NCBI RefSeq assembly: GCF_000012925.1
Contig: NC_007517.1
Location: 3,510,001 to 3,542,000 of the forward strand
DNA: 32,000 nucleotides
Origin: Geobacter metallireducens GS-15
Lineage (GTDB): Bacteria > Desulfobacterota > Desulfuromonadia > Geobacterales > Geobacteraceae
Direction: 5' to 3'
Shown: positions 20,591 to 32,000 of the stretch, piece by piece
Layout of the letters: the number at the start of each line of letters is the position of its first letter
How positions within the stretch are numbered: position 1 is the stretch's first letter
Made by a program: the position numbers and the translations under genes
Notes under the pieces: model-generated
Databases searched by the model: none
What the model saw: the letters and a program-made list of their open reading frames with translations, nothing else
Told to the model about the DNA's origin: nothing

Positions 20591-20678
20591 AACATCCTGA
20601 GCCTCTTTTCATTATTTACCACCCATGCTACAGTTCCCGCTCCCGATCCGGCACCAATCAGCAGGGAGGAACGACCAT

Positions 20679-21152
20679 ATGGCAGGCGGCATCAAGGCGT
20701 GGCCCGAGGACGAGCGTCCCCGGGAAAAACTCATGCGACGGGGAAGTCCGGCCCTCTCCGACGCGGAACTTCTGGCCCTCATCATCCGCACCGGCGACTC
20801 GGTCAGCAGGCGGAGCGCCATCGACCTCGGCAGGGCGCTCCTTCAGGAGTTCGGCGATCTCCGGGCCCTGGCCGGCGCCACCGTGGGGGAGCTCTGCGCC
20901 GTGAAGGGGACCGGACCGGCCAAGGCGGCCTCCATCAAGGCGGCCCTGGAGATCGCGTCCCGCATCAACTCTGAGCGACTCATGATCTGCAGCGAGCGGT
21001 TCACCTCCCCCGAACAGGTCTACAACCACTACCACTATGCCTTTCGGGACCGGCGCAAGGAGTACTTCATGGTGCTGCTGCTGGACGGAAAGAACCGGAT
21101 CATGCGGGAAGTGCAGATATCGGAAGGAAGCCTCAACCAGAGTATCGTGTAG
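20679..21152 (+). pseudogene. radC: radC (UPF0758 / JAB-domain protein), 3'-truncated: the N-terminal HhH part and the start of the JAB domain only
   Basis: MAGGIKAWPEDERPREKLMRRGSPALSDAELLALIIRTG...VKGTGPAKAASIKAALE...EYFMVLLLDGKNRIMREVQISEGSLNQSIV then stops. The family normally continues with HPREVF... and the HNHPSG JAMM motif. The stop coincides with an abrupt fall in GC content. Confidence 0.8.
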
Positions 21153-21184
21153 AATTTAACCCCGAAACATTTCTTTAAAATGGT

Positions 21185-21223
21185 AGCCCTTGGGACACAC
21201 AACTTGCCCAAGGGCTTTTTTTA
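21185..21223 (+). terminator. Rho-independent terminator just inside the island's left end
   Basis: agcccttggg-acacacaacttg-cccaagggct is followed by ttttttt. Confidence 0.75.
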
Positions 21224-21497
21224 TTTCATTAGAGTTCAAGACTCAACCCCATCACTCCACACCCCCCCACAACACCTTATAATTACATATATTTCTCCCT
21301 GCGCAACATTAGGTAAAAATAATTTATTTTATCCCGAGTTTTTGGGTCTTCCGAACATAAATAAACATGTTCAAGACCAAGTCTGAACTGAACCTCGAAA
21401 TGAACAACGCAGATCACTCCATCAGCAATGCTATGGGGCACTGCAACTAAACATTGAAAAATCACTATATCTACTTGATGGGAAAGGTGCATCTAAA

Positions 21498-22037
21498 ATG
21501 AACATTGAATCTACATATTCATATACATACCAAGACCAGCTCCACAAGAGCTATAAGGACTTTATAATGCAGTGCGCACCGTTTTCGTACTTTATAACGC
21601 TAACGTTCAGAAATCGGCAATCCGAAGACGAAAGCAAGCGGCAGATAAACTTTCTGCTTCATTTGCTTAAACAAAAGGTATTGGGAAGGAAATCAGACGG
21701 AGAGTATTTGAACGGATTTTGTGCTTTTGAAAAACATCGCTCTTTTGCAAACAATGAACTGCACTGTCATATTCTTTTATGTTCTCATGACAAACTGGAC
21801 TGTGAGGGCAAAAAGCCCTTTTCTGAGCACTTTTATGAGTGCTTGGGGAAGGTCAATGTTCAGTACGGGGTGCTTCATGGAAAGGACATTCCGCAGGTCA
21901 AAGCCTTTGCCAAAAATTGTTGTGATATTACTGTAATTTATGACTTGGATGGTCTAGTTAGCTATTTCACAAAGACCTTTGAAAGGAATTTGAACTTAGA
22001 TGCTTTTCAACCAATAGGCAAGTATGGAATACAATAG
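21498..22037 (+). CDS. HUH-motif endonuclease-like protein (rolling-circle Rep / inovirus Gp2, YagK-YfjJ-like)
   Basis: The 179-aa ORF carries the three ordered HUH-Rep motifs: FITLTF (motif I), ELHCHILL (H-u-H, motif II) and VSYFTKT (Y-x-x-K, motif III). Confidence 0.5.
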   Translation: MNIESTYSYTYQDQLHKSYKDFIMQCAPFSYFITLTFRNRQSEDESKRQINFLLHLLKQKVLGRKSDGEYLNGFCAFEKHRSFANNELHCHILLCSHDKLDCEGKKPFSEHFYECLGKVNVQYGVLHGKDIPQVKAFAKNCCDITVIYDLDGLVSYFTKTFERNLNLDAFQPIGKYGIQ

Positions 22038-22046
22038 GAGAAGGAT

Positions 22047-22226
22047 ATGCTAAAGCCTTATCGACAATCTCTTTATCATTGCAAGAAAACAGGGACCAAC
22101 AAACAGCGCCTCAGTATTTATGTCCCAGAAGACACGATGCAGAAGCTGGAGAATTGGATAGCTAAAAATGAATCAAAAATGACTCCTGGTCAAGCAATTA
22201 CAGACATATTGTCAATGGTGCTATAA
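22047..22226 (+). CDS. Small ribbon-helix-helix-like protein (59 aa, not in the ORF track)
   Basis: The ATG follows AGGAGAAGGAT. The translation is MLKPYRQSLYHCKKTGTNKQRLSIYVPEDTMQKLENWIAKNESKMTPGQAITDILSMVL. The segment RLSIYVPEDTMQKLENWI has the beta-strand/helix pattern of CopG/RHH proteins. It lies 9 nt after the Rep-like stop. Confidence 0.5.
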   Translation: MLKPYRQSLYHCKKTGTNKQRLSIYVPEDTMQKLENWIAKNESKMTPGQAITDILSMVL

Positions 22227-22258
22227 TTACATTTTTTGCCATACGCTAACTATATAAA

Positions 22259-22504
22259 TTATATAATTTTATTTTTTGTCTTGTACCTGTTGCTGTTAAT
22301 AAATTGCTTGAATGTCATAAAATTTTTGAGTATGGATGTATCAGACAATGAAATGTCCTTACTTCTTTTGGTTTCCGCGCAGTTATTGCACGATTTTTCT
22401 TGATGGTCGACATCCGTACCAGAATTGCAGTCACAATTACCTGTAATACTTTTCGTATCCAGTTTTATGTCTTTATTGCCCACCTTGCCCCTCCACTGAA
22501 TCAA
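22259..22504 (-). CDS. Hypothetical Cys-containing 81-aa ORF (weak)
   Basis: The ORF has a TTG start, no clear RBS and AT-rich sequence, and I recognise no family. It is listed only because it is the sole ORF in this spacer. Confidence 0.15.
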   Translation of the reverse strand: MIQWRGKVGNKDIKLDTKSITGNCDCNSGTDVDHQEKSCNNCAETKRSKDISLSDTSILKNFMTFKQFINSNRYKTKNKII

Positions 22505-22560
22505 ATTGTTAGTAGCAACGGCAAACCGTCGTTGCTTTAACTGTATTTATCGTATTTCTT

Positions 22561-22845
22561 GTGGGCAAATTTACCTTATACAGCCTGACATGGTACTGGA
22601 CCATGCAGCGGGCAAGCGTTAAACTGGGGATATTCGTAACTATGCGGGAGCCGACGCGGGGGATTCTTGGAACAGTCCAATGTTACGGATACTATGATTA
22701 CCAGCTGTCCGAAAACTTGCCAGTGCAGCGGATACCGAGTATCCATGTGTTATCGGAGGAGCAGTTCTTCCGGGGAAAATATCCCCATGAGCTACTCCTG
22801 CCACACCGAGGGACAGTCGGGAATACACGAAGGGCGATAACCTAG
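22561..22845 (+). pseudogene. Probable decayed 3' remnant of a DNA methyltransferase/REase-like-domain gene
   Basis: GIFVTMREPTRGILGTVQCYGYYDYQLSENLPVQRIPSIHVLSEEQFFRGKYPHELLLP resembles the conserved C-terminal pattern G-hh-IT-EEPT--M--EA--AG-Y-S------P-hQIhTIEELL-GK----P that I remember from a family of site-specific DNA methyltransferases. Key positions here are degenerate. Confidence 0.3.
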
Positions 22846-22905
22846 GGGAATATCGGGTAACTGTCTCTTTTCGACTTGGCAGCAGCAGGACAGGGACAAT
22901 ATAAA

Positions 22906-24624
22906 TCAAGCAGTCAAAACTGCTGCACGAGCAAGCACAGTTCTATCAATTTCAGCCTTCCATTCGGGAGCATGCAGGTCCGGTCGGAAACCGGTGCAGA
23001 TATTCAGCAGTTCCCGGATTTCTGCAACCCTAACATTGCCCGAACGGAACATGGCTTCGAACAGTGTCTTAAACTGGGCTATGGTCAGCGGAATAATGTC
23101 CAGTCCCATTCTATTATCGTCCCGGTCATACCAGACGCCGATACGGAACGTTTCAGCGGTATTGCTGTCAATCTTCTTGGCAAGGAACAGCCCATAAACC
23201 GGCTTATTCTGGGCAGCATACCGGACAACCTCGTCTGCTACATGCCGTCGGACTGGTTCCCCTTCAGCAGCTTCCTGCCGGGAATTCTCCGTCAGAGTGA
23301 CCTCAACGACGACCACAAAATCCTCAAATTCAAACAGCAGGTCAGGACCACCGCCCGGAGCCGGTCCAATAGGCAGGAAGTCCTGATCAATTTTGAACCG
23401 GCGAGCTTCGTAAGGACGGTTCATAAGGCTATCAATGGCAAGGAACGCCCGCCATAGCGTCCACTCGAAGTATGCTGGAGCTTCCGCCTGTGGAATGGCA
23501 ATAGCCTCTTCATCGTCATCGCCACCACGACGCCTACGCGGATTGATAAGCAGGTCCATATACTCCGCTATCTCATGCCATTCTTCCCCTTGGCGGTTCG
23601 CATATTCCTCTTCATTCATCCGGGACAGGATATCTTCGGCTTCGTGCCGGACAATCGCTATATCGGCAGCAGTATCAACCGTTCTTCCGGTAATGTTGAA
23701 CTGGACACCCCGGCGATTGACTTGAGCAACAAGGTCGTAAAGGACTATCCGAGCCGTATCACGGTTATCAGTCGGCAGCGTAGCGCCGTTGCACAGAGAA
23801 GAAACAAGCCGAAGGTCATTATCCGGAAGGGCAATATCCGCCACCAGCTGTTCAACAAAGACGTGTTTCTCCGGAACAATAGCAATCCCTCGTCCCTTGC
23901 TTTGCACAAGACCGGTAGCTTTCAGATACCGGAAGTTTGTATCTGCATAATCCCGGAATGTGCCCGGAGCATACTGATGCTCCACACCAGCGGCATTATA
24001 GCTATCTTGGTCGAAACGCCGCTTGTTCTGCGCTTCACTGCGTGCAGCGCGGAAAGTCAGTATCTGGTCAACGATTTCAACCGTTGGCGCTTCTGTGGCG
24101 GTAAGTTGGACATACAGCGCCATTTCCTGAAAGTTCAGCCTGCTTTCACCGGTCCGACGTTCCAGTTCCAGCAGCACCGCCAAGGTATGACGTAAAGGGG
24201 AAAACAGATTGTAGGTGTAATTTGGTTCAAGAACCGAAGGAATGTAATATGCTGCCAAGGACCGCAGGAAGCATTCCTGAATGCCGGAAACGCTTTCCGC
24301 TTCCACCAGTCGGCGACCGTTTGGGGTAATGATAAACGGTCTGCCCAGTTCTTCCTGTGCAATCCCGGCTCGTGTTGGAAGCTCCGGATAGATAAAGCCA
24401 AGCTGGCTCAATGCCGCCCGCCACTTGCGTCCCATGTCGGATACGTCTGCATCCGGTCGGATAATATTCACTACGCCAGCGTGGTGAAGTTCCCAAGCGA
24501 AACGGATTTCGTTTTCACGTCCCTTGATATTTCCGTCAAGGTTCGAGGTCGCTAATGCTAAAAGACCGTCGCGCAACCTGAATGGATTACGGACGGTCGT
24601 ATTGCCAAGGTACCAAGGTCTCAT
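22906..24624 (-). CDS. AlwI/BstNBI-family Type IIS restriction (or nicking) endonuclease
   Basis: The 572-aa ORF resembles my recollection of Nt.BstNBI/AlwI-family sequences. The matches are N-terminal WYLGNTTVRNPFRL, FRDYADTNFRYLKATGLVQSKG (family: RDVADATTRYFRYTGLF), FEWTLWRAFLAI, and the catalytic region GGGPDLLFEFEDFVVVVEVTLTENSRQ...EPVRRHV (family: GNQPDMEIIYEDFIVLGEVTTSKG...EPVTRHY). Confidence 0.8.
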   Translation of the reverse strand: MRPWYLGNTTVRNPFRLRDGLLALATSNLDGNIKGRENEIRFAWELHHAGVVNIIRPDADVSDMGRKWRAALSQLGFIYPELPTRAGIAQEELGRPFIITPNGRRLVEAESVSGIQECFLRSLAAYYIPSVLEPNYTYNLFSPLRHTLAVLLELERRTGESRLNFQEMALYVQLTATEAPTVEIVDQILTFRAARSEAQNKRRFDQDSYNAAGVEHQYAPGTFRDYADTNFRYLKATGLVQSKGRGIAIVPEKHVFVEQLVADIALPDNDLRLVSSLCNGATLPTDNRDTARIVLYDLVAQVNRRGVQFNITGRTVDTAADIAIVRHEAEDILSRMNEEEYANRQGEEWHEIAEYMDLLINPRRRRGGDDDEEAIAIPQAEAPAYFEWTLWRAFLAIDSLMNRPYEARRFKIDQDFLPIGPAPGGGPDLLFEFEDFVVVVEVTLTENSRQEAAEGEPVRRHVADEVVRYAAQNKPVYGLFLAKKIDSNTAETFRIGVWYDRDDNRMGLDIIPLTIAQFKTLFEAMFRSGNVRVAEIRELLNICTGFRPDLHAPEWKAEIDRTVLARAAVLTA

Positions 24625-24803
24625 TTGACAACAGTCAGAAGACGGAAAAGTTTCTGTTCCATTTTCACCAACGGTTGCAGCAGGTCATAAGCGTGCTCCA
24701 CCAGTATCATGTCGTCTGCCTTGTATAGTTCGGTTACAGATTGGCGGGAAAGGTCAAGCGCCTGCTGCGCCGCTTCCAACTTCTCACGGTCTGTTAATAA
24801 CAT
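24621..24803 (-). CDS. 60-aa helical protein translationally coupled to the AlwI-family gene (function unknown)
   Basis: A strong AGGAGG RBS lies 4 nt upstream of the ATG. The stop overlaps the endonuclease start (ATGA). Its GC content resembles the R gene, not the AT-rich gene upstream. Confidence 0.6.
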   Translation of the reverse strand: MLLTDREKLEAAQQALDLSRQSVTELYKADDMILVEHAYDLLQPLVKMEQKLFRLLTVVK

Positions 24804-24830
24804 ATTGCCTCCTGAACCTATATAAACTTA

Positions 24831-25826
24831 TTACGGAGAAAAATATGAAAGTAATTTCTGGGAGCCATCATGACATTCAAATGTCTTGAAATCTTCTGTC
24901 CATTCATAAGCAATCAGCCGGTCATTATTCAGGTAATCAATAACCCACTTGTCTTTCTTACTGATAGGTGCATTGGTCACTATACAGATACATGCATTTG
25001 GTTCTGAAAATACATACCGATATTCGTACAATTGAGACAATGCTTTTCGAATTTGGCTTACAAAGTTTGTATCTGTGATTGATTTCATTTCGTATAGGAC
25101 GATGTCTTTATTGTTTTTTGAGTATAAGTCAATTATTTCATTTTCAAATGCCGGGAGATTCTTGTTTTTTAGAAAAAGTGATTTTGCCGTGACAAGATTC
25201 CAATGTATCTGGTTTGCCCTGTCGAGTTTTTGTGATTGAACTTCGAATTTAATTTTTTTACCCACTTTAGGGTCAGATTTGAATTCTTTGTCAGAAATGC
25301 CATCACATAACAAAGTCTTGGTTTTTACCGCAGCTCCAATGTATTTGTTAAGGATGTAATTATCTTTATTAATAACAATGGTTTTATTTTTTACGAGATA
25401 ATTCAAATAATTAATAAAAGTCGAAAAACGTCTTTTAGCCGTACTTTCAGCACCTGGATAAAATTTCAAAAACCAAAGCCTCAATTGTGCTTCAGTAGGA
25501 TGATCACTATTGATATATGCAATGGCACGCTGAAAAACTATCGAATCAAGTACGCATCTTGTTAGAAATTCATTACGAGCAGATGACGTATTGAGAGAAG
25601 AAAATTCCTTGCCAAGAGCGGTAAGTTCAGAGTGATTATTACTGGTTACAATAAGACCAAGTATCTCTGCTGCAAGCCTATAATATCTTCCTTGTCTTCC
25701 GCCAGAATCTAACCCTATAACACCTTCAATGCTGACATCCGAAAAGTTCCCTTGTGATACAGCAATAGCGACTTCACCGACTTTTTCAAGTCTGTCTGCT
25801 TGCGGAAAGTCGCTTTGGGAAATCAT
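24831..25826 (-). CDS. PD-(D/E)xK nuclease-fold protein with an N-terminal wHTH-like domain (unassigned family)
   Basis: The protein is about 331 aa. The C-terminal part has IIDLYSKNNKDIVLYEMKS...QIRKALSQLYEY (a D...E-x-K arrangement followed by QL-Y). The N-terminal part (GGRQGRYYRLAAEILGLI...LTALGKEF) looks like a DNA-binding wHTH. The ATG at 25826 lies 2 nt after the methyltransferase stop; the ORF-track start at 25832 is TTG. Confidence 0.6.
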   Translation of the reverse strand: MISQSDFPQADRLEKVGEVAIAVSQGNFSDVSIEGVIGLDSGGRQGRYYRLAAEILGLIVTSNNHSELTALGKEFSSLNTSSARNEFLTRCVLDSIVFQRAIAYINSDHPTEAQLRLWFLKFYPGAESTAKRRFSTFINYLNYLVKNKTIVINKDNYILNKYIGAAVKTKTLLCDGISDKEFKSDPKVGKKIKFEVQSQKLDRANQIHWNLVTAKSLFLKNKNLPAFENEIIDLYSKNNKDIVLYEMKSITDTNFVSQIRKALSQLYEYRYVFSEPNACICIVTNAPISKKDKWVIDYLNNDRLIAYEWTEDFKTFECHDGSQKLLSYFSP

Positions 25827-25828
25827 TC

Positions 25829-27745
25829 TCAATACCCAACAAATAAGTATTCTTGCACGTCGTTATTGTTATCTCCGACCTTGTGCCCATGTGTTCCGAA
25901 TGAATACTTGTAGTCCACCGGAATGACCGCAACATTGGTCTTGTACTTGCCCATTATTTCAAGCATCTCGTCCTGCGTGGGCTGGCTGTTGGACGAGTAT
26001 GATACTATCAGAATATTGTTTTTGAACCGCTTAAACAAGTGGTCAAAGGCGTCCGCAGCACCCTTTCTTGTGGAAAATGGTGTCGGATAGGATTTGAATT
26101 TCTTGGTCTGGGTGTGTTCCTGTATCTCCACACCCTTCCAGTTCCTTGCCAGCCCTTCAACGAAGTGATACCGGCGGACATACTCGTTGTCCGACAGCGG
26201 GCTGTAATATGGCGGGTCAATGTAGACCAGTGCATTTTCTACGACCGGTACGGTCAAAGCGTCGCCGTGGCGTGATTTGTTTTCATGCCCATTATCAAAA
26301 ACGGCACTGTTAATCGCTTCCACAGCTTCTAGGAACTGGTCCGCAAATGACAGGTGAAGATCACGCCGCCCGTCGTCATAGCGACCAAGACCGGTATAAG
26401 TGAATATCCCGCGTGGACGCTTCTTGGTGCAGGCTCTGATAAGCGCCGAAAGGGCGATTGCCTTCTTATATTGATTCTTCAATGCCCAAATATTTGACCT
26501 CAAGACATCAATCAGGCGATTATCGGCATCCTCGAAGTAAAGACCCTTGAACTTCTCCGCCACGAAGCCGTCAGACTTGTGCTTTGGTTCCAACAGTCTC
26601 CGTGCTTCTTCAAGCGGAAGAATAACGGAATTATTCTCGACCATTGCTTTTGTAAAGCACGCCGACATGTGCATGTAGTCATTCGATATGACCGCCTTGC
26701 CATGAGACTTGAACATATAGCCGACAATCCCGCTACCGGAAAAAAGGTCAACGGCGGTATCGAAGTCAAACTGGGACGCTACTGCCCAAATGTCTTTCAG
26801 GAGTTTGTTCTTGCTTCCCATATAACGGGTAGGCGGATACAGCAAAGCCTGTTCCGGAAGTGGTTCCGGCACAAGTTTCAGGTTCAGACGTGCCTTGGGC
26901 TTGATGTCAACGATAACATCTTGCCCTGTGCGTCCTTGTCCATTACAACTGATATGGCGCTTGGTCTCAACGACGTACATTTCATAACGCCCGTATAGTT
27001 CATGCACCAAGGGATTGTTGCTGTTAGTCAATATGACATAGCACCCTAGTTCATGCAGGCGGGCGATTTCCGTAGCAAGTTCCACATGGTCTTCCTCGTA
27101 GAACTGTTCTTTGGTGTATCGCTTGAAATCAGCATACGCCGATACCGGGAGATATGGCGGGTCAAGGAAGACAAAATCACCGGAACGTGCGTGTTCCCGT
27201 AGTACGTCCTTATAGTCGCCAAGAACTATCGTTGCCTTGCTCAACAGGTAAGAAGCGGCACGCAATCCTTCTTCGTCAAGAATGCGGGGATTGACGTACC
27301 GACCATAGGGCGAGTTGAACTGACCGCTTTTGTTGACCCGGTACAATCCATTGAAGCAGGTCCGGTTCAAGAAGATTGTCCGAGCCGCTGCGGACGCTGG
27401 CGAAAGCTTGGTCCAGTCCTGCGCCCTGACCTTATAGAAATCGTCTTCCGTGTTATTGTGGCGTTTCAGGCACCGGATAACATTGTCAACATTGTCGGCA
27501 ACCGATTGGTACAGGTTGACCAGTTCCGGGTTGCTGTCGGCAATAATGGCATCTTCCGGCTTGACCGCAAAGAACAATGCTCCGCCGCCGAAGAATGGCT
27601 CGATATAGCGACCGTACTTCTTCGGCATCTTGGGCAACAGTTGCCCAAGCAGTTGCGACTTGCCGCCTGCCCACTTCAAAAGAGGTCGGCAACCAGACAA
27701 ATCGCACAACTCACTGATATTTCTGTTTGTTTTTGATTTTGTCAT
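25829..27745 (-). CDS. Two-domain N6-adenine DNA methyltransferase (Dam-like domain plus FokI-N-like domain fusion)
   Basis: Domain 1 (residues about 20-290) has LKWAGGKSQLL, EPFFGGGALFF, NPELVNLY and FLDPPY (Dam/D12 class). Domain 2 (about 300-638) has RYMGSKNKLL, DLFSGSGIVGYMF, MVENNSV, VYIDPPYY, ILIVSYSS and EYLFVGY. Domain 2 resembles the N-terminal half of M.FokI as I recall it, so the domain order is permuted relative to M.FokI. Confidence 0.85.
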   Translation of the reverse strand: MTKSKTNRNISELCDLSGCRPLLKWAGGKSQLLGQLLPKMPKKYGRYIEPFFGGGALFFAVKPEDAIIADSNPELVNLYQSVADNVDNVIRCLKRHNNTEDDFYKVRAQDWTKLSPASAAARTIFLNRTCFNGLYRVNKSGQFNSPYGRYVNPRILDEEGLRAASYLLSKATIVLGDYKDVLREHARSGDFVFLDPPYLPVSAYADFKRYTKEQFYEEDHVELATEIARLHELGCYVILTNSNNPLVHELYGRYEMYVVETKRHISCNGQGRTGQDVIVDIKPKARLNLKLVPEPLPEQALLYPPTRYMGSKNKLLKDIWAVASQFDFDTAVDLFSGSGIVGYMFKSHGKAVISNDYMHMSACFTKAMVENNSVILPLEEARRLLEPKHKSDGFVAEKFKGLYFEDADNRLIDVLRSNIWALKNQYKKAIALSALIRACTKKRPRGIFTYTGLGRYDDGRRDLHLSFADQFLEAVEAINSAVFDNGHENKSRHGDALTVPVVENALVYIDPPYYSPLSDNEYVRRYHFVEGLARNWKGVEIQEHTQTKKFKSYPTPFSTRKGAADAFDHLFKRFKNNILIVSYSSNSQPTQDEMLEIMGKYKTNVAVIPVDYKYSFGTHGHKVGDNNNDVQEYLFVGY

Positions 27746-27869
27746 AATAGATAGCGATGTTCAAAGGGTACAATCTACTCTAAAATTTAGCCACAATGCA
27801 AAGTAATTCCATGGACCCTGCTGTATATTTTCGCTGCTATAAATGTTGTAAGGAGTTACAAAGTTTTCA

Positions 27870-27879
27870 GATATCGAAA
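27870..27879. repeat. Left copy of the 10-bp target-site duplication GATATCGAAA
   Basis: It is identical to 29193-29202 and immediately abuts the IS terminal inverted repeat. Confidence 0.85.
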
Positions 27880-29192
27880 TACTACTGTCCGGTAAACTTT
27901 GATTGTACAGCTGTAACTTGTTGAACTTTATTGCTCTTTGGCACAATTGTTCTTTTTTCGACATGAATTCGTTCTGGGTGTAGCCTTCCTCCCTTTACAG
28001 GAGGGGAGCAATGCACACCGGTCCGACCGTTTTCAAACAACTTCTGCAGTTTCTGCCCCGGTACGAATTCAATCTCTGCGTTCGCCGACACCGTGGCGAG
28101 TATCGGGAGAAGAAGTTCTCGACCTATGACCAGTTCCTCTGCCTGGCTTATGCCCAGATGGCTGGCCGTGAGAGCTTGCGGGATATCGAGACCTGCCTGA
28201 ACTCCCACCAGGAGAAGCTGTACCACATCGGCTTTCGTGGTGATGTCTCCCGCACGACCCTTGCCGACGCGAACGAGCGCAGGGACTGGCGTATCTTCCA
28301 AGACTTCGGTCATGTACTGATCGGCATAGCTCAGCAGCTGTACCAGGCTGATGCCATCGCCGTTGAGCTTACGCAACCGCTCTACGCCTTTGACTCGACC
28401 ACTATCGACCTGTGCCTTACGCTGTTCCCATGGGCCGAGTTCCGCAAAACCAAGGCGGCGGTCAAGATGCATACGCTCATTGATCTGCGTGGTCCCATTC
28501 CAACCTGGGTCACTATTACCACTGGCAAGGTCCACGATGTCAGGATGCTGGACCATCTGCCGGTTGCAAAGGATGCCATTTACACGATGGACAGAGGGTA
28601 TGTCGATTTTGCCCGGCTCCACTCCATCCACAAGCAGGGAGCATTCTTCGTAGTTCGGGCAAAGGACAACCTGAAATGCCAGCGGTTATATTCCCATCCG
28701 AAGGACAAGGAATCAGGTGTACGGGCAGACCAGATTATCACCCTGGTGACGCAGAAGTCGAAAAAGGGGTATCCGGAGAAACTGCGCCGGGTCAGCTATG
28801 TTGACAAAGAACGGAACAAGCGACTCGTATTTCTCACGAACAACTTCGAGATTCCGGCAGCGACGGTGGCTGCGATTTACAAGCAGCGCTGGCAGGTGGA
28901 GCTGTTTTTCAAATGGATCAAACAGCACCTGCGGATCAAGTCGTTCATCGGAACGTCAGTCAATGCCGTGAAGAGCCAGATATGGGTTGCCTTGTGCATC
29001 TATCTGCTGGTGGCGATCACGAAAAAGAAGTTGGGGGTTCCGTGTTCGCTCTACACTTTTCTACAGATTCTGGAGGTCAACTTGTTCGAGAAAAAGCCCA
29101 TTTCATCGCTGGTTGCGGAGGCTCTCAAGCGAAATGCTGATTATCCTGAGCGCAACCAACTGAACTTATTCAACTATTAACCGGACAGTAGT
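27880..29192 (+). mobile_element. IS4-family insertion sequence (about 1.31 kb)
   Basis: The terminal inverted repeats are ACTACTGTCCGGT (27881-27893) and its complement ACCGGACAGTAGT (29180-29192). The element is flanked by a 10-bp direct repeat, has a single DDE transposase ORF, and is more GC-rich than the surrounding island. Confidence 0.9.
28011..29180 (+). CDS. IS4-family DDE transposase (DUF4372 N-terminus)
   Basis: The 389-aa ORF has a DUF4372-like N-terminus (FKQLLQFLPRYEFNLCV...FSTYDQFLCLAYAQMAGRESLRDIE), the DDE residues (YAFDSTTIDL, YTMDRGYVDF) and the IS4 Y-x2-R-x3-E-x6-K signature (YKQRWQVELFFKWIK). Confidence 0.92.
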   Translation: MHTGPTVFKQLLQFLPRYEFNLCVRRHRGEYREKKFSTYDQFLCLAYAQMAGRESLRDIETCLNSHQEKLYHIGFRGDVSRTTLADANERRDWRIFQDFGHVLIGIAQQLYQADAIAVELTQPLYAFDSTTIDLCLTLFPWAEFRKTKAAVKMHTLIDLRGPIPTWVTITTGKVHDVRMLDHLPVAKDAIYTMDRGYVDFARLHSIHKQGAFFVVRAKDNLKCQRLYSHPKDKESGVRADQIITLVTQKSKKGYPEKLRRVSYVDKERNKRLVFLTNNFEIPAATVAAIYKQRWQVELFFKWIKQHLRIKSFIGTSVNAVKSQIWVALCIYLLVAITKKKLGVPCSLYTFLQILEVNLFEKKPISSLVAEALKRNADYPERNQLNLFNY

Positions 29193-29202
29193 GATATCGA
29201 AA
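29193..29202. repeat. Right copy of the 10-bp target-site duplication GATATCGAAA
   Basis: It is identical to 27870-27879. Confidence 0.85.
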
Positions 29203-29363
29203 CGAAAAAATTGTGAATAAGCTACCCGATTTGTCTCAACAAATTCGGTAGCTGCCTTAAGAGATATGCTTGAATGGATTTCATGGCAGATTTAAGCTGG
29301 TTTTCTGGAAATAATAGAATTCCCCCTTTCATGCAGAAGCTATTGGTAAAAATCGGTCCACAT

Positions 29364-29975
29364 TCAGGCAGTCAACCCGCGTGTAGCAATGAAACTGTAG
29401 ACTGTACCGCGCGAAACCGAAAATATTTTAGCAATAGACGACAATGATACCTGCTTCCGCAGGAGTTCTGTTATCTGACCTTCCATACCGTCAAGTTTGC
29501 TTACCCCGGTAGCTCCTTTGGGACGTCCTAGCTTGACCCCGGCAGCCTTTCGGGCTTCTAGAGCCCTTTTTGTGCGATCAGAAATCAAATCTCTTTCCAA
29601 CTCTGCAAAGAGCGAGAACATCGTAACCATAACCTTTGCCTGAAGGTTCTCACTCCCATTTATATTCAGGTTTTGCTTTATCGCTATTAAGAACACCTTC
29701 TTAGATGCCAATTCATTTATAATATTCAAAACTTCTACTGTACTTCTACCTATCCGCGACAATTCAGAGACAATAACACGGTCCCCTTGAGACAACATAC
29801 TAACTAAATAGTCAATTTTACGCTCTTCTACTGACTTACGACTTGAAATCTCAACTTCTACAAAGTCGTCTATAGATAATCCATTCTTTTGAGCGTAATC
29901 AAGAATCTCAAATTTTTGATTTTTCAAATCTTGCTGACTTGTGCTGACTCTCAAGTATGCTATTGTTTTCGCCAT
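29364..29975 (-). CDS. Small serine recombinase (resolvase/invertase family) with a C-terminal HTH
   Basis: The 203-aa ORF has AYLRVSTSQQDL (catalytic Ser), VSELSRIGRS, FAELERDLISDRTK, GRPKG and the C-terminal HTH SIAKIFSVSRGTVY. Confidence 0.9.
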   Translation of the reverse strand: MAKTIAYLRVSTSQQDLKNQKFEILDYAQKNGLSIDDFVEVEISSRKSVEERKIDYLVSMLSQGDRVIVSELSRIGRSTVEVLNIINELASKKVFLIAIKQNLNINGSENLQAKVMVTMFSLFAELERDLISDRTKRALEARKAAGVKLGRPKGATGVSKLDGMEGQITELLRKQVSLSSIAKIFSVSRGTVYSFIATRGLTA

Positions 29976-30160
29976 ATTCAGCCTTCCTTTGCCTGTTAAT
30001 AAAATAGTTAATTGCTATTTTTATTTTACGGATACAGTCAAAGGAAGTCTATGGTTAATTTGTTATATATTGCATACTAAAAACGTATGTTTTGCTAGAC
30101 TCTTATTAATGGTAACTAGAGATGTCACTCTTACAATACCATTCATTATGTTTGGCGAGA

Positions 30161-32000
30161 CTAATTTGAATCCAGTTCAAATTCGGTTTCGAATGGGTGT
30201 AATTCTTCCTCTTCTCTAAATATTGGCGCCATTTCTTTATTCCCCATCCACCAATTCAATTTATCGTTAATTAATTCTGAAGTTACCCGGTACGCTTGTT
30301 GTTTCTTGTCGTATTTAATAGTTCGGTAGTTACCGTTTTTGAACCTGACGACGAAGAATCTATCATCTTTTGTGTTTTGCTGTGACTGCCTCATTCCATC
30401 CAAATCAATGGTTTTTTCATGCTTCAGAATGTGTTTTTCTGAATCAGATGCACTTTTTATTTTAATTTCGTAGTCTCTTTCTTTCTGTTCTATCTGTTCA
30501 TCACTAAAGACGCTTCCTCTCGGGTATACTAATATTTGGCTTATTATTTGTCTTAACTCGTCACGCAATCTGATTCTAAACATTATTTTGTCATCTTCTT
30601 TCACTGATTTATTCTGTGCCTTATCCAAAGTAAGCAAATTTTGCACTCTAACATCTATATTATTATTATCATATTCTGCGATGCATATTCCCTTACTCAA
30701 TTTTTCTATCTCTTCAGATAGGTTTGTTTTTTCTTCTAACTTTTTCTTTATCTGTTCGTGGTAATGCTCTAATTCTGCTCTTTCAGTAATATCATCTAAA
30801 AAAACATTCAACATATCAATTTGTTTTTGCACCTTCATTAGTTTGCCATTTCTTGCCGTTAAGCTTTTTCTCAGTTCATTTAATCTATTCTGGTCTGCCT
30901 GTTGTTCTGCTCTAAGCACATATCTAATATCAATTTCTCTGCAATATTCAAAAAATGCTTTCTCGATCTCATTACATTTCATAGAAATGTAACTACACTT
31001 GACTCCGCGTCTTGCACTATCACATACCAGATACCTTACTTCACCTCCAACGTTATGCCTAGCAACAACATCCATACGTGAACCACAGTAACCACACCTT
31101 GTATATCCGCTAAACAAATTTTCTACTTTAGCAGTTCTACCAGGTCTATGTGCTCCGTTTTTCAATTTAGCTTGTACTGCATAGAATGTATCGGTGTCTA
31201 TAATAGGAGGAAAATAATCTTTGATTAGTTCACCGTCCGGAACCGGTTTTGAATGTTTTGAGCCAAACACATGTGGCTGAAACTCTCCAATCACAGCACT
31301 ATTGGAAAGGATTTTTCTGACGGTTGTCTGATACCAACCTATTTTTGACCTAAAAGGTTCTATTTTTTGTTTATTTAATATGGTTGATATTGCCTTTACA
31401 CCAAGACCAGATAAAGATAATTCAAATATTTGTTTTACAATTTCGACTCTGTCTTCTTTCAGTATAAAATCTTTCTTGTCAGGAGTTAGTTCAAGCCACC
31501 CTGGACAATTCGCTGTCAACTTTATATTGTGAAGATTTTTGCGCTTCAGACGCCACGCCGCACATATTCGTTCTGATTTCCGCAAGCTTTCTTCATTTGC
31601 ACGAGCCATAATACCCAAGGAAATGAATATGTTGCCGATATTCGCTTCAAATCCTTCTTTTGTGTACTCCATTTTGTCACTAAGAGTAACGATTTTGATG
31701 CCAGCGTCCAAAATCTCTTGAAATTGCTTGAAGGCTGTCAATACACTCTCTCGACTCAATCGGTCCAGCGATTCGACTAGAAGAACCGATCCTTTAGGCA
31801 CCCGTCCTTGCTTCACAAATTCGAGAAATACACCAAATTCACCTTCCTTGACATGTTCACTCGTGAAGGCGGACTTACCCAAATCTTGATAGGAATGTTT
31901 ATCATCTAGCACTAACCCGTGTTCTTCTGCGTACGTTCGGGAGAGTTGAAGCTGTCTTTCCAAGCTGCTTCCCTCTGCTTGTGTTGCTTTTGAAAACCGG
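30161..32000 (-). CDS. Large serine recombinase (candidate island integrase), N-terminus just beyond the window end
   Basis: The in-frame translation continues to the window edge: RFSKATQAEGSSLERQLQ... (catalytic Ser motif). It is followed by the resolvase core (LLVESLDRLSR), a recombinase domain (GVKAISTILN...GWYQTTVRKILSNSAVIGE), a zinc ribbon (CGYCGSRM...LVCDS...KC) and a long coiled coil. The ORF-track M at 31963 is an internal TTG. Confidence 0.88.
   Translation of the reverse strand, partial: RFSKATQAEGSSLERQLQLSRTYAEEHGLVLDDKHSYQDLGKSAFTSEHVKEGEFGVFLEFVKQGRVPKGSVLLVESLDRLSRESVLTAFKQFQEILDAGIKIVTLSDKMEYTKEGFEANIGNIFISLGIMARANEESLRKSERICAAWRLKRKNLHNIKLTANCPGWLELTPDKKDFILKEDRVEIVKQIFELSLSGLGVKAISTILNKQKIEPFRSKIGWYQTTVRKILSNSAVIGEFQPHVFGSKHSKPVPDGELIKDYFPPIIDTDTFYAVQAKLKNGAHRPGRTAKVENLFSGYTRCGYCGSRMDVVARHNVGGEVRYLVCDSARRGVKCSYISMKCNEIEKAFFEYCREIDIRYVLRAEQQADQNRLNELRKSLTARNGKLMKVQKQIDMLNVFLDDITERAELEHYHEQIKKKLEEKTNLSEEIEKLSKGICIAEYDNNNIDVRVQNLLTLDKAQNKSVKEDDKIMFRIRLRDELRQIISQILVYPRGSVFSDEQIEQKERDYEIKIKSASDSEKHILKHEKTIDLDGMRQSQQNTKDDRFFVVRFKNGNYRTIKYDKKQQAYRVTSELINDKLNWWMGNKEMAPIFREEEELHPFETEFELDSN

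Follow-up and report, generated by a model that had tools for sequence, protein, structure and literature searches.

A putative second restriction nuclease linked to the GGATC methylase in the GmeI operon of Geobacter metallireducens GS-15

Introduction

Why should an AlwI-type restriction-modification (R-M) operon carry two additional genes between its methylase and its restriction enzyme? The question is raised by the GmeI locus of Geobacter metallireducens GS-15, which lies in the 32,000-nucleotide stretch analysed here (the window, positions 3,510,001 to 3,542,000 of the forward strand of contig NC_007517.1; coordinates refer to the window, or to another locus where a handle such as L022 is given). 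The minus-strand operon at 22906-27745 consists of M, a double methylase, X, a 331-aa protein, S, a 60-aa open reading frame (ORF), and R, an AlwI-family endonuclease. A first-pass annotation had described it as an AlwI-type system with two extra, tightly coupled genes, and had offered three hypotheses for X: the second-strand cutter of a heterodimeric enzyme, part of one of two R-M systems fused into one operon, or a captured, unrelated nuclease module. The follow-up analysis suggests that X is probably an independent second restriction enzyme, which would make the locus a composite operon whose single methylase guards the host from two unrelated nucleases.

The GmeI locus, its methylase and its AlwI-type enzyme are already known. 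Single-molecule real-time (SMRT) resequencing of strain GS-15 led to the naming of Gmet_3140 as M.GmeI and of Gmet_3138 as GmeIP, a putative AlwI/EacI-like enzyme, and the two were found to be parted, unlike in AlwI and EacI, by a 333-aa ORF that had almost no homologues at that time and for which no function was proposed (Murray et al. 2012, PMC3526280). The odd intervening ORF was thus flagged in 2012. The first-pass annotation had allowed that the arrangement might prove to be a common, characterised system; the locus is indeed in the literature and the M-X-R order recurs widely, but X itself is not characterised there. The linkage of X to the methylase through gene rearrangements, the M-X cassettes and their reversed X-M1-M2 counterparts, the swappable nuclease head and the S family appear not to have been described before.

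Organization of the operon and its methylase

The genes and the features of X that are central to the argument are the following.

25829-27745, minus strand: M (Gmet_3140, M.GmeI), 638 aa, fused double N6-adenine methylase
24831-25826, minus strand: X (Gmet_3139), 331 aa from the ATG at 25826, DUF7226 and PD-(D/E)xK
25323-25826, minus strand: N-terminal domain of X, residues ~3-170, two winged-helix units (DUF7226)
24834-25247, minus strand: C-terminal nuclease domain of X, residues 196-333
25128-25130, 25089-25091 and 25083-25085, minus strand: D235, E248 and K250, invariant residues of X, together with Q267 and Y271 of QLYEY
24808-24813, minus strand: Shine-Dalgarno AGGAGG of S, 4 nt 5' of the S ATG, read from the sequence
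24621-24803, minus strand: S, 60 aa, helical, member of a conserved small-ORF family
22906-24624, minus strand: R (Gmet_3138, GmeIP), 572 aa, AlwI-family Type IIS endonuclease
21102-28914, no strand: GGATC-free 7.8-kb stretch over the whole operon, the longest such gap in the window

The M stop and the X ATG are 2 nt apart ('TAT TGA GA ATG'), X and S are separated by 27 nt with the AGGAGG ribosome-binding site inside, and the S stop overlaps the R start as ATGA ('AAATGAGAC'). The four-gene operon and the tight junctions that the first-pass annotation had described are thus all present, and its view of the locus as an AlwI-type system with two inserted genes is borne out. A mechanical ORF call starts X at a TTG at 25832, two codons before the ATG; the ATG start agrees with the N-termini of the homologues (M-x-x-x-x-DFPQAD). 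The sequence of X agrees in full with that of a Geobacter metallireducens protein (100% identity), and identical contigs turn up in many sequencing runs. Since homologues of M, X, S and R keep the same relative positions in many unrelated genomes, the ORFs of the operon are not chance features.

M consists of two D12-class methylase domains (PF02086 in Pfam, E 9e-84, in two stretches). Residues 20-276 form a Dam-like N-terminal domain (NCBIfam TIGR00571, 276 bits), the C-terminal domain (~303-636) is likewise D12-class, and the PADLOC MTase_II profile PDLC03261 covers the protein at full length with 1410 bits. The C-terminal half of M aligns to positions 2-334 of a 646-position double-methylase profile and the N-terminal half to positions 361-545 of another, by which the 'permuted FokI-like' order ascribed to M earlier is only loosely checkable. 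M.GmeI modifies GG(m6A)TC and G(m6A)TCC (m6A, N6-methyladenine) at >98% of sites, and the sole other m6A motif in the GS-15 genome is TCCAGG, the motif of a Type III enzyme (Murray et al. 2012, PMC3526280). As in an AlwI-type methylase, two N6-adenine domains (PF02086) are combined with modification of both GGATC strands in the published SMRT data, and the methylome therefore does contain an m6A motif attributable to this enzyme, as the first-pass annotation had anticipated (PMC3526280).

X is predicted to join a DNA-targeting domain to a PD-(D/E)xK nuclease

The only Pfam match of X is DUF7226 (residues 45-148, E 8e-9); X has no match among the PADLOC or NCBIfam profiles, and sequence and profile searches against all PDB chains returned no match either. 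Its homologues form 405 clusters of ~335 aa each at 90% identity, and a profile search with X reaches about 1900 related representative clusters. In the AlphaFold2 model of X (predicted local distance difference test, pLDDT, 89; predicted template modelling score, pTM, 0.83), two winged-helix units are connected through a flexible linker to an alpha/beta C-terminal domain. A separate model of this domain (pLDDT 93) has the order alpha-beta-beta-beta-alpha-beta. D235, E248 and K250 (IDLY...YEMKS) and Q267 and Y271 (QLYEY, a QxxxY motif) are invariant, the first three of these residues in 25 homologues, and these three sit on strands 41-45 and 48-55 of the C-domain model.

An invariant D...ExK on adjacent strands and a matching core fold in the model place the C-terminal domain in the PD-(D/E)xK superfamily. 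In Foldseek comparisons with the PDB this domain scores best against XisH, the catalytic domain of Nt.BspD6I, PaqCI, Hjc and the nuclease domains of Avs proteins; the top matches are all PD-(D/E)xK nucleases (probabilities 0.84-1.0). For the N-terminal domain, matches to the BpuJI recognition domain (probability 0.99) and to Nt.BspD6I were obtained. The proposal that X is a winged-helix protein with a PD-(D/E)xK nuclease domain is therefore upheld by the invariant residues, the model and the structural matches. The N-terminal domain is presumed to recognise or target DNA.

Both halves of X are used elsewhere in other combinations. The X-type C-domain ends proteins of 395-545 aa that have unrelated N-termini, one of which follows a 5-methylcytosine (m5C) methylase on a Tolypothrix plasmid, and a 509-aa relative beside an ACCTGC methylase has been noted previously (Murray et al. 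2012, PMC3526280). DUF7226, which no paper in the literature search mentions, is fused elsewhere to HNH, NOV_C, GmrSD_N and DndB modules and to DptF. The contexts of more distant full-length X-like proteins were sought in plasmid and viral collections, which gave domain-level matches only. On a phage-like IMG/VR contig, the gene of a 459-aa protein that ends in an X-type nuclease domain (39% identity; L116 4011-5390) is flanked by a sigma-factor-like gene on one side and an HNH gene on the other, and no methylase is close by. On a Priestia megaterium plasmid, an annotated DptF, a phosphorothioation-dependent restriction protein, begins with a DUF7226 domain that shares 34% identity with X residues 8-146 (L112 11173-13569), and its gene is directly downstream of an AlwI-type M-R pair.

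X follows the methylase and not the AlwI-type enzyme

An X-anchored search, with one genome per species, yielded 15 loci, of which 14 included upstream sequence. All 14 of them have, immediately before X, a double methylase that shares 61-75% identity with M. An AlwI-family R comes after X in six X-anchored loci, in one of which it is apparently frameshifted. In a Gallionellaceae metagenome-assembled genome, the AlwI-family gene 3' of X (L022 941-2670) is split into the frames 941-1519 and 1528-2670 and is either a pseudogene or an assembly error. Eight of the 14 loci have no AlwI enzyme within 8 kb; the surrounding genes there are unrelated ones of housekeeping or island type. The complementary R-anchored search in metagenomes gave 80 loci, 72 of them with upstream sequence, in which the methylase is always upstream of R. 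X is absent from ~60 of these 72 and a full X is found in only five R-anchored loci; about 90% of the close AlwI-family homologues are without X. Because most R loci lack X, and because M and R are adjacent in AlwI and EacI, R does not need X.

The association of X with the methylase also withstands rearrangement. In cassettes of more distant X relatives (42-43% identity) the genes run in the opposite order and each methylase domain has a gene of its own (X-M1-M2). M1 and M2 show 48% and 52% identity to the two halves of M, and the cassettes, with L117 and L120 as split-domain examples, adjoin SIR2 or TIR defence genes. In another variant, seen on one 1.7-kb contig only, a DUF7226-HNH protein begins 2 nt after a methylase 65% identical to M. 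The pairwise distances of M and X are correlated over 21 loci (Pearson 0.79, against 0.80 for M and R) and the trees are largely congruent. X therefore shows the genetic linkage expected of a nuclease cognate to M.GmeI, in 14 of 14 loci, in rearranged cassettes and in co-divergence, with one solitary exception that is described below. Judged by gene neighbourhood, X is linked to the methylase and not to the AlwI enzyme, and this linkage is strict and ancient.

Site avoidance and base composition

GGATC is absent between 21097 and 28915, and the whole window contains 67 sites against 108 ± 10 expected. The operon itself has 0 GGATC against 5.3 expected under a codon-shuffle null, which was also used for the cassettes; 0 was reached in 3 of 500 shuffles. 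The three classes of loci compare as follows.

Canonical M-R, 42 loci: GGATC observed 143, expected 231.5, ratio 0.62
M-X without AlwI enzyme, 9 loci: GGATC observed 12, expected 33.5, ratio 0.36 (z = -4.5)
Composite M-X-R, 11 loci: GGATC observed 55, expected 69.9, ratio 0.79

These ratios are to be read beside those of control pentamers, which run from 0.59 to 1.33 over the three classes. In the M-X cassettes GATC outside GGATC is not depleted (49 vs 54.6), and the depletion of GGATC without depletion of other GATC sites suggests that these cassettes behave as units under GGATC-specific restriction pressure. In the GmeI operon, all GATC (3 vs 14.9 expected) and GAGTC, the PleI/BstNBI site (0 vs 4.4), are depleted as well, and GGTAC, GCATG, GGATG and TCCAGG are not.

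In the window the GC content at third codon positions (GC3) is 0.30 in X, compared to 0.59 in M and 0.52 in R, which suggests that X is an added gene. A lower GC3 of X is also found in several other M-X-R loci. In the M-X-only cassettes, M and X share GC and GC3 and differ as a unit from their flanks. No mosaic structure that could explain the GC break at X was seen along M. The hypothesis of a captured, unrelated nuclease module is thus right in so far as X looks added, but X is not unrelated to its surroundings, being the partner dedicated to methylases of this family. X (ATGATTTCCCAA, MISQ; 25815-25826) and the S homologue of L026 (ATGATTTCTCAA, MISQ; 353-364) begin with four codons that are identical at 11 of 12 nt, and both genes stand directly after the methylase stop; this is suggestive of a recombination breakpoint but could be chance.

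S and R, the AlwI-type module

S has no match in Pfam, NCBIfam or PADLOC, helix-turn-helix (HTH) families included. S-like ORFs 62-82% identical to it lie between M and R in L026-L028, where X is absent, and diverged members of 60-72 aa occupy the ~210-nt M-R gap in ~35 loci, usually with their stop overlapping the R start. The family, of which 26 distinct sequences align almost without internal gaps, is present in roughly half of the AlwI-type loci. S is thus a real, conserved gene that is translationally coupled to R, and this coupling suggests a role in the expression or control of R. The position upstream of R would fit a controller (C) protein, although an HTH family match is lacking in all three profile collections. 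The gene order is M-S-X-R in L042 and M-X-S-R in the window. In three loci the S slot is taken by a conserved 197-aa ORF (MHPDT[RK]L...; L012 9021-9614, L013 9154-9747, L045 1100-1693), without a family match and with its stop overlapping the R start, which indicates that the slot upstream of R hosts alternative accessory genes.

R gives a match of 625 bits (cutoff 23.1) to PF09491 (RE_AlwI) that spans the entire profile, 1-441 of 441, and one of 695 bits to the PADLOC REase_II profile, and it aligns to Nt.BspD6I at E 1.6e-22. E387, D428 and E441 of R, which correspond to E418, D456 and the EVT motif of Nt.BspD6I, do not vary among the homologues of R. R is therefore, on its sequence, an RE_AlwI-family enzyme with intact catalytic residues, consistent with its published description as the putative AlwI/EacI-like GmeIP (Murray et al. 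2012, PMC3526280), and its recognition site is expected to be GGATC. The public annotation of R is 556 aa long (P0121) and the 572-aa form starts at the ATG overlapping the S stop (24577-24624). The N-terminus of this longer form, MRPWYLGNTTVR, recurs in all homologues, which makes it probable that the annotation starts R too far downstream.

Genomic setting

The radC gene (20625-21152) ends prematurely, about 50 residues into its 121-residue JAB domain, and downstream of the break (~21150-32000) GC drops to 0.32-0.55, compared to 0.60-0.69. This low-GC region also carries a Rep-like 179-aa ORF (21498-22037), an IS4-like DDE transposase gene (28011-29180), a resolvase gene (29364-29975) and a gene for a 600-aa large serine recombinase (30161-31963); no tRNA gene is found in the window. 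The truncation of radC, the lower GC and the mobile-element genes downstream show that the R-M operon is carried on an island integrated into radC.

The transposase gene, on the plus strand, starts only ~265 nt upstream of the M start at 27745. In Acinetobacter plasmids its place is taken by a small, controller-like HTH/XRE gene, and the insertion sequence may have pushed out a native promoter or controller. One further feature was recorded at the end of R:

22909-22924, minus strand: terminator-like hairpin and T-rich tail (consensus scan, weak)

The promoter and terminator scans gave results at or near shuffled expectation, with hairpin-type sites in the region not above the shuffled number, and were not used.

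Proposed role of X and alternative explanations

In the explanation favoured here, M.GmeI methylates an adenine on each strand of GGATC and would thereby protect the host from both R and X. S and R would form a canonical AlwI-type module, with R a Type IIS enzyme that is blocked by GGATC methylation, just as AlwI is blocked by methylation of the GATC core. X would have been recruited into an M-S-R operon from a second R-M lineage (M-X) that is built on the same methylase family. With a DUF7226 double winged-helix targeting domain and a RecB-like PD-(D/E)xK cleavage domain, X would have a Type IIS-like build; it would act alone and cut at or near unmethylated GGATC, and methylation would block it. 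Other genomes have X as the sole nuclease that accompanies this methylase. That X cleaves DNA, reads GGATC, is blocked by methylation and works independently of R is most likely in view of its conserved motif, its linkage to M and the avoidance of GGATC in M-X cassettes.

Several observations weigh against this explanation. The restriction-enzyme profiles of PADLOC do not recognise X, public sources label it hypothetical, and all its structural matches are weak, with E-values of 6.6e-3 or worse. There is little GGATC avoidance inside X in the composite M-X-R loci (10 vs 10.3), avoidance as such could be inherited or imposed by other enzymes, and the GC3 gap between X and M is at odds with the congruent trees. 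No methylase lies within 6 kb of one X relative, the solitary P0114, although a Dam-positive host could tolerate such a gene. An McrB-like and McrC-like pair comes after the closest relatives of X (61-62% identity), in L109-L111, so X could be serving other nucleases. Moreover, there are stand-alone DUF7226 proteins of 148-152 aa that end at the same domain boundary and have no nuclease domain, which hints at a non-catalytic role of this domain. Such ORFs lie between M and R in two loci (148-149 aa; L032 2279-2725, L081 5552-6001), another follows XRE-M on the A. baumannii plasmid pARLG_6295_1 (L106 4995-5453) with no nuclease present, and several diverged representative clusters have the same length. 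The plasmid gene adjoins Tn7-like transposition genes on this OXA-23 plasmid. The McrB-like (~545 aa) and McrC-like (~537 aa, DUF2357 and PDDEXK_7) genes that adjoin GGATC-type methylases are located between S and R in L028 (2745-6001), and after X in L109 (3752-6996) and L111 (7089-9790).

Alternatively, X could be an accessory targeting or regulatory protein, in which DUF7226 binds DNA or the methylase and recruits or controls a downstream nuclease, either the AlwI-type R or the McrBC-like pair, perhaps by analogy to the R1 DNA-binding module of LlaI and BsuMI. The X relatives of L109-L111 hold the R1 position of an M-X-(McrB-like)-(McrC-like) operon with the LlaI layout, the DUF7226-only ORFs are conserved, and DUF7226 is fused to many different effector modules. 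Such a role nevertheless seems unlikely, since eight genomes have M-X with nothing conserved downstream and two X-M1-M2 cassettes are without another nuclease, the D...ExK...QxxxY residues are invariant across the X family, LlaI.R1 is built differently with its N-terminal ERCC4-like beta-sheet domain, and most R homologues do without X. A still broader and more speculative idea, which is given slightly less weight, is that DUF7226 reads the methylation state of GGATC or docks onto the double methylase, and that X is the prototype of a plug-in class of methylase-guided nucleases. DUF7226 might then be joined to interchangeable heads (PD-(D/E)xK, HNH, GmrSD-like) or hand its targets to separate nucleases such as AlwI-type R or McrBC-like motors, a conjectural architecture between Type II, Type III and LlaI-like systems, and the stand-alone DUF7226 proteins might, on the same tentative footing, be minimal adaptors.

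The deviant GC3 of the gene-sized X in composite loci, its position before S in the window and after S in L042, its patchy distribution across the M tree, the exchange of its nuclease head for HNH and the X-like nuclease domain of the phage contig could also be read as traces of a selfish, homing-type nuclease gene, free-standing, that targets the conserved surroundings of GGATC-methylase genes, thereby inserts beside them and has no defence role. A homing endonuclease would be expected to have a phylogeny decoupled from that of its host gene, whereas the M and X trees are largely congruent (r = 0.79) and the co-divergence of M and X is no looser than that of M and R. The uniform GC and GC3 of the M-X-only cassettes, the X-M1-M2 order, which puts X at the other end of the methylase genes, the GGATC-specific avoidance in M-X cassettes and the hundreds of full-length, motif-intact copies of X likewise make this origin distinctly improbable.

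The heterodimer hypothesis, in which R is a nickase or partner-dependent and X cuts the second strand as in BspD6I, draws on the presence of X and R in one operon, on the natural nickases with separate small subunits that belong to the AlwI family (PDB 2p14, 6qnz) and on the Nt.BspD6I catalytic domain among the structural matches of the X nuclease domain (probability 0.97). It fails because both the distribution and the homology of X and R disagree with it: each occurs without the other in most loci (8 of 14 genomes have M-X without an AlwI enzyme, and ~90% of R homologues are without X), so that the obligate co-occurrence of a small subunit is not seen. Furthermore, ss.BspD6I is homologous to the AlwI catalytic domain (E 9e-15 to R), and the comparison suggested earlier between X and this subunit revealed no detectable similarity to it (no hit to 2p14) or to any solved chain. 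X also has a DNA-binding-like N-domain of its own (170 aa), AlwI and EacI have no such gene, and R retains its catalytic residues and a full-length family match, all of which render a heterodimer very improbable.

Hardly any weight is left for the notion that the locus unites two R-M systems of different specificity, with one methylase domain devoted to each nuclease. The domains are distinct, one Dam-like and the other FokI-N-like, and they are separate genes in L117 and L120. SMRT sequencing, however, found only GGATC (on both strands) and the Type III motif in the genome, and this single site for M rules out that the two methylase domains serve two different sites. In addition, X co-occurs with both domains, fused or split, and never with one alone, and GATC outside GGATC is not avoided in M-X cassettes. 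From the first-pass hypothesis of fused systems, the merging of two nuclease systems in one operon survives, and the division of the methylase domains between them has to be given up.

If X is an active GGATC-directed nuclease, it would represent a new restriction-enzyme family of ~400 clusters at 90% identity and ~1900 related representative clusters, and the compact protein could be a new isoschizomer or a nickase with a different cut position. One methylase family would then be combined with three unrelated nuclease solutions, AlwI-type, X and LlaI-like McrBC, which are sometimes stacked in one operon, and the locus would exemplify the diversification of R-M systems through exchange of nucleases while the methylase stays the same. 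A plausible benefit of stacked nucleases might be escape from phage inhibitors that are aimed at a single enzyme. Such an activity would also give a first clue to the function of DUF7226, a domain found at the N-terminus of DptF and GmrSD-like defence proteins as well, and S adds a conserved small ORF of AlwI-type systems that annotation overlooks.

Comparison with known systems

The AlwI/EacI Type IIS systems are the closest counterparts of the GmeI operon. M and R are 61-77% and 54-76% identical, respectively, to many of their members, such as those annotated as a Dam-family methylase and an AlwI-family enzyme on Acinetobacter lwoffii and Geobacillus plasmids, and the site is the same, GGATC, by SMRT. 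M and R are adjacent in AlwI and EacI, unlike in GS-15, where X and S stand between them; about half of the AlwI-type relatives carry S and only ~7-10% carry X.

In its predicted architecture X resembles FokI-type enzymes, as two winged-helix units precede a separate nuclease domain, weak structural matches lead to BpuJI, Nt.BspD6I and PaqCI, and X-type cleavage domains recur behind other N-termini next to other methylases. It differs from them in having no sequence similarity to solved restriction enzymes, in its much smaller size (331 aa) and in its RecB-like QxxxY motif. With the BspD6I/Nt.BstNBI enzymes the locus shares R, which is in the same Pfam family as Nt.BspD6I. However, ss.BspD6I is a copy of the family catalytic domain without a DNA-binding domain, and X is unrelated to it in sequence and is not co-distributed with R.

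The non-canonical McrBC systems LlaI and BsuMI (methylase, R1, McrB-like R2, McrC-like R3) share their layout with the closest X relatives, and the same McrB/McrC-like pair is inserted between S and R in L028, but McrBC-like genes are absent from the window. The shared layout led to X being considered as a homologue of LlaI.1/R1; as the published R1 fold is built differently, R1 is retained as a functional analogy only. LlaI.R1, which has been described as a DNA-binding module, begins with an ERCC4-like domain, in contrast to the winged helices and intact nuclease motif of X, although the gene layout is shared only in L109-L111 and the difference in fold rests on the published description of R1 set against the model of X. 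According to a 2026 preprint, the target site of LlaI is still unidentified. Lastly, the DUF7226 defence proteins, in which this domain forms the N-terminus of DptF or is fused to GmrSD_N, DndB or HNH modules, have their N-terminal domain in common with X and differ from it in their effector modules and in the type of system to which they belong.

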